Positions 40,069 through 42,737 of a stretch of 64,000 nt of DNA are shown piece after piece; the first letter of the stretch is position 1; every line of letters begins with the position of its first letter. The stretch is taken from positions 3,557-67,556 of the IMG/VR virus record IMGVR_UViG_3300029999_000001. One strand, written 5' to 3'. The position numbers and the translations under genes were made by a program. Origin of the DNA: a virus. The notes under the pieces are model-generated. The model had not been told where the DNA came from. It saw nothing but the letters and a program-made list of their open reading frames with translations, and searched no databases.

Positions 40069-40478
40069 ACCCGGAGTGGGTCGCCGCGCTCACCGCCTTC
40101 ACTGTCGCTGTCGTCACCGGTATGGCATGGGGGACCCGGCGGGCGTGGCACGCCACCCGCTGGCTGTGGCACATCGGCCGCCGCACCAGCCGCTTCCTCG
40201 ACGACTACTTCGGTGAACCGGCACGCGACGGTCTCCCAGCCAGGCCCGGCATCATGGGCCGCCTCAAATCCGTCGAGGATGCAGTTGGCCATGTCGCCAG
40301 CGAAATAGCCAAGGTCGCCGTAGAGACCATGCCGAACGACGGCACGTCAATGCATGACGTCCTGGCCCGCACTGAGCAGTCCGTGGACGAGATCAGGAGT
40401 GAGCAGGTGAAGATGCGGGCCCGGATGGAACTGTTCGAGACCCAGCGCGGCGAACGCGAGGACGAAGAGAGCCCGTGA
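40065..40478 (+). CDS. Membrane protein of the lysis region
   Basis: N-terminal TM helix; RFLDD.FGEPARDG.PARPGIM.RL then coiled coil. Confidence 0.7.
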   Translation: MNPEWVAALTAFTVAVVTGMAWGTRRAWHATRWLWHIGRRTSRFLDDYFGEPARDGLPARPGIMGRLKSVEDAVGHVASEIAKVAVETMPNDGTSMHDVLARTEQSVDEIRSEQVKMRARMELFETQRGEREDEESP

Positions 40479-40912
40479 GCGCCAGGCTGGCCCGCCCGGC
40501 GATCTTCGGTTTGGCCGACGGCATGATGAGCCTGCTCGGCGTGGTGCTGTACCTGCTCGGCCACGAGGCCCTGATCTTCCCGGCCGCGCTGTCCGGCGGC
40601 ATCTCAAGCGCGCTGTCCATGGCCGGCGGGGAATGGCTGTCCGACAGCGACAACGGTCTCGGCGCGTCCTGCGTGATGGGTGCGGCGACCGGGGTCGGTG
40701 CGATCCTCCCCGCCATCCCGTACGCCGTCACGAGCGGCACAACAGCGCTCGCCTGCTCCATCGTGATATGCGTCCTCATCGCCGCGGTCGTGGCCCTGAT
40801 GCGGCCCATGCGCAGCCAGACGCTGGCCTTCGCCGAGACATACGCGATCCTCGGTGCGATCTTCCTCGTCGTCCTGGCCTGCGGGCTGTTTTTGCCAGGA
40901 AGCGCAGCCTGA
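40475..40912 (+). CDS. Minimal VIT1/CCC1-family-like membrane protein
   Basis: IFGLADG, ALSGGISSALSMAGGEWLS and GAILPAIPY motifs; about five TM helices. Confidence 0.75.
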   Translation: MSARLARPAIFGLADGMMSLLGVVLYLLGHEALIFPAALSGGISSALSMAGGEWLSDSDNGLGASCVMGAATGVGAILPAIPYAVTSGTTALACSIVICVLIAAVVALMRPMRSQTLAFAETYAILGAIFLVVLACGLFLPGSAA

Positions 40913-41244
40913 TGTGGTGGTGGCACTGCTGGCTTCCGTTCCAGCACTGGCTCGCCATCCACACCGGCACCGACAACGAGGCCGCCGACTTCTACGGGTT
41001 CTTCTCGGGATTCGGCAGCGACATCGGTGAGGTCACGATCGTCGGCGGCCTGCTCGCCATCTACAAGAAGCACACCTGTCATCAGCGCTGGTGCTGGCGT
41101 TTCGGCCACTACGACTTCACCGACGAGGCGACGGGGCTCACCTACCGCCTGTGCCGCAAGTGTCATCCCGGGCATCCGGGCCGCCATCTTACGGGGCAGC
41201 ACATCGCCCGGATCCACGCCAGTAATCGCGGGAAGGAAACGTGA
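40912..41244 (+). CDS. His/Cys-rich small membrane protein
   Basis: TGATG coupling; MWWWHC...HTCHQRWCWRFGH...CRKCHP. Confidence 0.65.
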   Translation: MWWWHCWLPFQHWLAIHTGTDNEAADFYGFFSGFGSDIGEVTIVGGLLAIYKKHTCHQRWCWRFGHYDFTDEATGLTYRLCRKCHPGHPGRHLTGQHIARIHASNRGKET

Positions 41245-41248
41245 TCGA

Positions 41249-42193
41249 GTGACTCGTATGTTCCGCGCCGGCGGCCTTAATCGTGGCCCGGCCAGCGTCG
41301 GGGTCGTCTCCGCCGGGCCGGAAGTGCTCCTCGCGGACATCAGCGAGTATCAGGCCGACATCAACGATGCCCTCTACCTGCATTGGTCGCAGGCGGTGGT
41401 CATCCGCGCGCTGTTCGGTGACGCCCATGATGATGCCGCCTGGTACGGGGGCGCGCGGCGGACTGCGCTGCACGAGGGTGGCGCCCAGTTCCTCGGGATC
41501 TACCAGTACCTTGTGGCCGGGCAGGACGGGGCGGCGCAAGCCCAGGCGTTCCATCAGCTCGTCGGCGCCATCGAGGCCGGCGAGGTGTTCATCGCGGACT
41601 TCGAGGAAGGCGATCACGCGATGCTGACCGCCTGGTACAACGAGATGCTCTCGCTGCATGGGGAGGGGATCGGCCCGTACCTGTGGACCTACACCGGCCT
41701 GGACTTCGGGGAAGCCCTGGGGTTCCTGCCGGTCCAGTGGCTGGCCGGCTACACCGCCGACGAACCAGCCTCACCGCACACGCTGTGGCAGTTCACGAAC
41801 TCGTATCAGGTGCCCGGCGTGGGCGTGGCTGACTGCTCGGTCTTCCACGGGACCATCAGCGAGCTGGCGGCGCTCGCCTACGCCGTGCCGAAGGGCTGGA
41901 CGTTCCCGGCCCCCGGTGGCCTGCATCTGGTGAGGCAGACCCGCGAGGGCTACTCGTTCGCATGGGACGCGGTGACCGGCCCGGCCGGGCAGAAGCCGTC
42001 CGGGTACAGCGCCTTCACCTACAACGAGGCCGGGGACCTGGCGAACCATCAGGTTGTGACCGGCCTGAGCGCATCCGAGTACGGGCCCGCCGGGAAAGGC
42101 CTGCCCGCAGGGACGTACCGGACCAACGTGTGGGCCAACGGCGGCGAAGTTGGGCCAAGCCATGCCACCTTGACCGTCACCCTGACCCGCTAG
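41249..42193 (+). CDS. Endolysin, GH25 muramidase with C-terminal Fn3-like domain
   Basis: ADISEYQ, IADFE (DxE), LWQFT and ADCS GH25 motifs. Confidence 0.85.
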   Translation: MTRMFRAGGLNRGPASVGVVSAGPEVLLADISEYQADINDALYLHWSQAVVIRALFGDAHDDAAWYGGARRTALHEGGAQFLGIYQYLVAGQDGAAQAQAFHQLVGAIEAGEVFIADFEEGDHAMLTAWYNEMLSLHGEGIGPYLWTYTGLDFGEALGFLPVQWLAGYTADEPASPHTLWQFTNSYQVPGVGVADCSVFHGTISELAALAYAVPKGWTFPAPGGLHLVRQTREGYSFAWDAVTGPAGQKPSGYSAFTYNEAGDLANHQVVTGLSASEYGPAGKGLPAGTYRTNVWANGGEVGPSHATLTVTLTR

Positions 42194-42705: not shown

Positions 42706-42737
42706 GTCCCCTTCGCCGCCCGGCGCGGGGGCTTTTT
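42706..42737 (+). terminator. Terminator-like hairpin
   Basis: GC stem plus TTTTT followed by CATGCC. Confidence 0.55.

Follow-up and report, generated by a model that had tools for sequence, protein, structure and literature searches.

A loop-less VIT1/CCC1-family protein with exchangeable membrane-protein neighbours in late operons of uncultured phages

What is a relative of VIT1, the iron transporter of plants and yeast, doing between the holin-like and endolysin genes of a bacteriophage? The question is raised by a 64,000-nucleotide stretch of viral DNA (hereafter, the window) lying within the 100,323-bp record IMGVR_UViG_3300029999_000001. With genes for terminase, portal, major head, tape measure and integrase, the phage is a tailed and temperate one, and it probably infects an actinomycete, since its relatives include a Streptacidiphilus carbonis prophage and a bog Actinomycetota MAG.

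The tail block of this phage is followed by four closely spaced genes specifying a holin-like protein, the VIT1-like protein (mini-VIT), a His/Cys protein (HC) and a GH25 endolysin (Table 1). The holin-like product has one N-terminal transmembrane (TM) helix and then a soluble tail; mini-VIT is the sole multi-pass protein of the cassette. A GTGA overlap joins the holin-like gene to the mini-VIT start, which bears out the original prediction that the latter is coupled to an upstream lysis-type membrane gene. Coupling had also been predicted downstream, and here only the first half stands: the end of the mini-VIT gene overlaps the start of the HC gene (TGATG), but the endolysin gene (29.6 bits against PF01183, cut-off 27) begins 4–13 nt past HC and is merely adjacent. 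Both middle genes are under purifying selection, with dN/dS values of 0.15–0.28 for mini-VIT and 0.24–0.47 for HC. At its upstream edge the cassette is overlapped by the last gene of the tail block, and an antisense ORF overlaps the end of the endolysin gene.

Table 1. Positions of the genes and other features discussed in the text. Plain coordinates refer to the window; L numbers are other loci retrieved for comparison.
Feature	Position	Strand	Evidence or remark
Last gene of tail block, 669 aa	38059-40068		PhoD-like phosphatase domain (E 1e-10)
Holin-like protein, 137 aa	40065-40478	+	phrog_9869 (E 2e-16); phrog_15431 'holin' (E 6e-7); hydropathy
Mini-VIT1/CCC1 transporter, 145 aa, five TM helices, GTG start	40475-40912	+	PF01988
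HC (His/Cys) protein, 110 aa	40912-41244	+	No Pfam or PHROG family
GH25 endolysin; GTG at 41249 a possible alternative start	41258-42193	+	PF01183, phrog_291
Lone antisense ORF, ~111 aa	42177-42512	-	Matches no family
Terminator-like hairpin, past the antisense ORF	42710-42731	+	
KcsA-type K+ channel genes beside HC and mini-VIT	L005:5625-5972, L006:3987-4322, L042:1406-1738, L071:2755-3294, L161:5821-6156, L021		Actinophage-like contigs
2-TM family beside VIT/HC	L068:701-1198, L032:600-989, L050:1946-2222, L146:5624-5935		Unannotated
His-rich HNH-like gene, ~150 aa, just upstream of mini-VIT	L004:5552-6004, L051, L052, L012, L054		
Relatives of the HNH-like gene, upstream of HC	L104, L107, L108, L116		
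Frameshifted VIT genes	L063:3156-4130, L066:4947-5415		Sequencing errors or pseudogenes

The 145-aa product is, as had been proposed, a member of the VIT1/CCC1 family. It scores 35.9 bits against the PF01988 profile (gathering cut-off 28.1), and its AlphaFold2 model (pLDDT 91.6, five long helices) superimposes on EgVIT1 [6iu4] with Z 16.5 and an rmsd of 2.5 A over 143 of its 145 residues, the runner-up reaching Z 8.1; the TM-score against 6iu3 is 0.79. The mini-VIT family profile finds EgVIT1 at E 3e-13. Single-sequence searches of the PDB missed VIT1, and EgVIT1 was recovered there only with a profile built from distant members, which aligns to it as two pieces and skips the metal-binding domain (~65–68 residues).

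The motifs read from the sequence at the outset are present as G12-x-x-D15-G16 and S48-M49-x-x-G52-E53, followed by P79-x-x-P82. Since 26 residues separate E53 from P79 and ~68 residues of EgVIT1 go unmatched, the cytoplasmic loop ahead of the PxxP helix has indeed been lost. EgVIT1 (PDB 6IU3/6IU4) likewise has five TM helices and a PxxP equivalent, and D15, G16 and M49 correspond to its D43, G44 and M80 (residue numbering from PMC7714665). It is, however, ~250 aa long, shares 16% identity with the phage-encoded protein and carries between TM2 and TM3 a Glu-rich cytosolic metal-binding domain (MBD, ~residues 91–160) where mini-VIT has a short turn. Neither E72, P48, G69 nor G76 is conserved: the position of the Glu72 proton relay, eight residues before the Met (M-8), is held by G41, E53 is not its equivalent, the kink proline P48 has no counterpart, and T72 replaces Y175.

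Loss of the loop is in itself already known. Having a VIT TM core and no loop, mini-VIT falls under the definition of VTL-like or MBD-less VITs, as do plant VTL/SEN1 and the prokaryotic family groups IA, II and III (PMC7714665, PMC7540006). Loop-less VTL4 and VTL8 rescue yeast ccc1 (PMC7540006); because such proteins still transport iron on their own, mini-VIT has no need of a domain supplied in trans. The NCBIfam models TIGR00267 (24.3 bits, cut-off 157) and MbfA (12.3 bits, cut-off 450) match only far under their cut-offs, and mini-VIT lacks the N-terminal ferritin-like domain of the latter. The mini-VITs differ from VTL, TIGR00267 and MbfA in forming a separate clade of 140–155 aa proteins coupled to small membrane partners, and those of recorded taxonomy are mostly viral. 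A VIT1/CCC1 gene is also annotated, by annotation only, in a chlorophyte-infecting giant virus (10.1101/2022.12.26.521929), a eukaryotic virus for which no partner genes are described.

The family comprises 169 close clusters and 438 representatives at 50% identity, and nearly all of the best 150 of these 438 are 135–160 aa in length. Both PxxP prolines and the D, G and M residues are kept in 135–138 of 141 members (D15 in 135, M49 in 138), down to ~25% identity, and the E53–P79 spacing is 24–31 in nearly all of them. E53 occurs in only 84/141; position M-8 is L, G, V or A across the family, and 29/141 members have a Glu at M-4, a helical turn ahead of the Met. Viral sequences make up 75–86% of the top Atlas clusters. 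Among 50,697 GenBank phages there was no match to mini-VIT and none to HC, and GTDB gave two mini-VIT matches, both in prophage-like context, in S. carbonis and the bog MAG. The uncultured phages concerned probably infect soil actinomycetes. One 175-kb contig (L002 and L004) carries two separate holin-VIT-Fet4-like-endolysin cassettes. An apparent VIT-DUF1003-like fusion of 324 aa in L063 was rejected; the frameshift falls in the last VIT helix and the usual GTGA junction is intact.

The neighbouring HC had been described as a His/Cys-rich membrane protein. Its composition agrees (11 His, 5 Cys), while the membrane label comes from a single helix of moderate hydrophobicity, with mean hydropathy peaking at 1.2. 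The protein appears to consist of an N-terminal amphipathic helix, one probable TM helix and then a probable zinc finger; the helix modelled at 30–54 by AF2 bears conserved S32, G33, G35, S36, D37 and E40. With C56, C61 and C81 invariant across 86 HC sequences and either His or Cys at position 84, the alignment points to one structural zinc site of the Cys3His/Cys4 type. Fold searches gave nothing clear (best Z 3.1 in the PDB; weak matches in BFVD and Atlas). HC is nonetheless a widespread phage family, with >110 matches in IMG/VR, found between connector genes, after the capsid gene or within lysis cassettes, and it behaves as a mobile insert of late operons.

Might the HC zinc finger be the missing metal-binding domain, supplied in trans to form a two-part transporter? 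This was one of the two roles first suggested, and we now find it quite doubtful. VIT-HC adjacency does recur in divergent lineages (17 of 88 HC proteins, with at least nine state changes on the HC tree), often with start-stop overlap and well above chance for two rare genes; as it is scattered over the branches of both trees, some functional affinity is likely. HC is, however, missing from 38 of 49 VIT loci and outnumbered there by the other partners described below, and 68 of 73 HC-seeded loci have no VIT beside HC (it adjoins in the other 5). Its ligands are those of a typical structural zinc site and not of a Glu-rich MBD, profile-profile comparison detected no homology between HC and VIT, and the loop-less VITs are self-sufficient. 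A predicted complex of two VIT chains with HC scored 0.00 with the fold of HC uncertain, and it speaks neither for nor against the pairing.

The original prediction missed that membrane proteins resembling ion transporters replace one another in the slot beside VIT. Among the 49 VIT loci that are non-redundant and have enough flank, this slot is occupied by HC in 11 and by a DUF1003/Fet4-type protein in 24, never by both, and by neither in 14; a DUF1003 match in L068 that spans only the C-terminal tail was taken out of these counts. The alternative partners are DUF1003 [PF06210], low-affinity iron permease [PF04120] and a divergent type related to both. The DUF1003 and Fet4 types are mutually related (HHalign 64–86%), while HC, in comparisons of shallow profiles, gave a probability of <1% against these and against the K+ channel. 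Mutual exclusivity of the two kinds of partner has a Fisher p of 2.4e-4 if kinship is ignored and of ~0.25 from five independent pairs, an underpowered test, and may be due in part to a single hot spot of insertion. On the VIT tree the partner changes 19 times, compared with a mean of 21.4 after shuffling, and shows no significant phylogenetic signal. The VIT closest to that of the window (L001, 85%) follows the same holin-like gene, a DUF1003-like gene replaces HC, and DNA similarity stops exactly at the VIT stop codon. One distant VIT is followed by DUF1003 and another by HC, amid head-tail genes.

The association is asymmetric: VIT is absent from all 17 new viral loci seeded with DUF1003/Fet4. 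Two small membrane families thus share one set of genomic slots, and VIT is an extra that may accompany either. Several of these 17 loci directly precede an endolysin gene or follow a capsid gene, as HC does. DUF1003/Fet4-like genes in these positions and lacking VIT were seen in L173-L178, L156, L183, L185 and L186. A K+ channel-like gene joins five loci, always with HC (PF07885 confirmed in L006 and L071); the copy in L161 has a degenerate filter, TTDGCD vs TTVGYG. A third, unannotated family with two TM helices also fills the slot, and the C-terminal tail of its L068 member, common to DUF1003 partners, suggests a domain swap. The HNH-like gene often found just upstream of mini-VIT, with relatives upstream of HC, may drive the mobility of the slot. 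Searches covering few subscription journals found no literature on phage VIT proteins in lysis cassettes or on VIT with swappable partners, and, on DUF1003, only two papers that mention it in passing. This large phage clade, with its neighbour slot holding HC or a DUF1003/Fet4-type protein, is apparently undescribed.

How firmly is the module tied to lysis? Among 28 long loci an endolysin or holin-like gene lies within 3 kb of VIT in 16 and in the other 12 there is none; counts of lysis genes are lower bounds, since the fetched loci were annotated with a custom ORF caller and locally built HMMs. Elsewhere VIT follows the major capsid gene, sits among connector genes or occupies accessory regions. 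The neighbourhood survey thus upholds the placement beside lysis genes for part of the family, and the cassette would be only one among several places of insertion.

These counts weaken the other role first suggested, in its form of a VIT recruited to serve as the holin itself, which we regard as very improbable even though no other protein of the window's cassette is multi-pass. Of 15 loci linked to an endolysin, 11 have a holin-like gene besides VIT, PF23778 members included. PHROG and Pfam holin families match the gene upstream and neither mini-VIT nor HC, and the compact transporter fold is retained together with its metal site. In F1 mycobacteriophages one 1-TM protein alone supports lysis (PMC13056207), so that the holin-like protein can serve as the lysis protein here. 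Other, multi-TM actinophage cassettes (LysF1a/b, LysA2a/b; Gordonia holin-like proteins) likewise have several small membrane genes around the endolysin and, as with the holin-like protein and HC, include 1-TM proteins; the survey of Gordonia holin-like proteins mentions no transporter, iron or channel.

A subtler role would be in the timing of lysis, VIT and its partner leaking cations or protons in a controlled way and so setting the moment at which the 1-TM holin-like protein triggers, while making no lesion themselves. In many loci VIT has a holin-like gene on one side and an endolysin gene on the other, DUF1003-like genes directly precede endolysins even in the absence of VIT (L175-L178), and K+ channel genes join the VIT cluster. 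Moreover, as D29 LysA2b illustrates, actinophage lysis regulators may lie outside the cassette (10.64898/2026.08.27.747656), which makes a timing role compatible with the non-lysis positions of VIT. The near-invariant Asp/Met transition-metal site nevertheless suggests that metal binding, and not simple leakage, has been selected for, and some copies are found in small-gene accessory regions (L011, L014, L161); we consider such timing possible, though unlikely. Of similar standing is the further proposal of a modular ion/metal gate in late operons, in which the minimal VIT, physically associated with HC or DUF1003/Fet4 as unrelated small channel-like subunits and with a K+ channel as an optional extra, would tie lysis timing to host metal/ion status. 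On this view HC would constitute a new family of zinc-sensing pores or regulators in the membrane, functionally equivalent to DUF1003/Fet4.

Rather unlikely, in our judgement, is a part in superinfection exclusion or against competitors, whereby the module would depolarise the membrane or drain ions on the arrival of a second phage. Actinophage prophages reportedly contain membrane-protein defence genes, the window's phage is temperate, and the VIT gene and its channel-like partners are membrane morons, small and mobile. They are, on the other hand, translationally coupled inside late operons, and no sigma-70-type promoter was found near mini-VIT or HC, which counts for little in an actinomycete.

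At roughly even odds (about 0.5) we favour mini-VIT being an accessory, late-expressed metal-carrier module of the late operon. The 145-aa protein would be a self-sufficient, loop-less carrier of the VIT/VTL type. By analogy with EgVIT1 it would act as a homodimer, D15 and M49 of both protomers forming a site at the cytoplasmic mouth for a transition metal of the Fe2+/Mn2+/Co2+ type; lacking the Glu72 relay, proton coupling might be weaker or rerouted via E53/D57. Presumably co-transcribed and translationally coupled with late genes, it would be an accessory to a small membrane protein with one or two TM passes, which in the window's phage belongs to the HC zinc-finger family and elsewhere is a DUF1003/Fet4-like permease; a KcsA-type channel gene is sometimes present as well. 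While virions are being assembled, such a module may tune the passage of metals or ions through the host membrane, for example by exporting excess Fe2+/Mn2+, and lysis itself would be left to the neighbouring holin-like gene and endolysin.

A carrier is favoured by the EgVIT1 fold match, by the near-invariance of D, G, M and PxxP across the 141 members and by the rescue of yeast ccc1 by loop-less relatives, and its accessory nature by the exchange of partners across the 49 loci and the varied positions of VIT. The proposal is weakened by the proximity of lysis genes in 16 of the 28 long loci, as the link to lysis is real in many, and by mini-VIT being the only multi-pass protein of the window's cassette. 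The 14 loci with no recognised partner and the kinship-corrected exclusivity also tell against it, as does the nature of the partners: we know of no established substrate for Fet4-like or DUF1003 proteins in bacteria.

Should the module affect lysis, phage lysis timing would be linked to metal/ion homeostasis, of which we found no description in the literature. Mini-VIT is in any case a natural minimal VIT, the core only, with neither MBD nor Glu72, and is usable as a construct for studying the part of the loop and of the proton relay in transport by VIT/VTL proteins. Its exchangeable neighbours, finally, provide a guilt-by-association lead for DUF1003 and for the wholly unannotated HC family.
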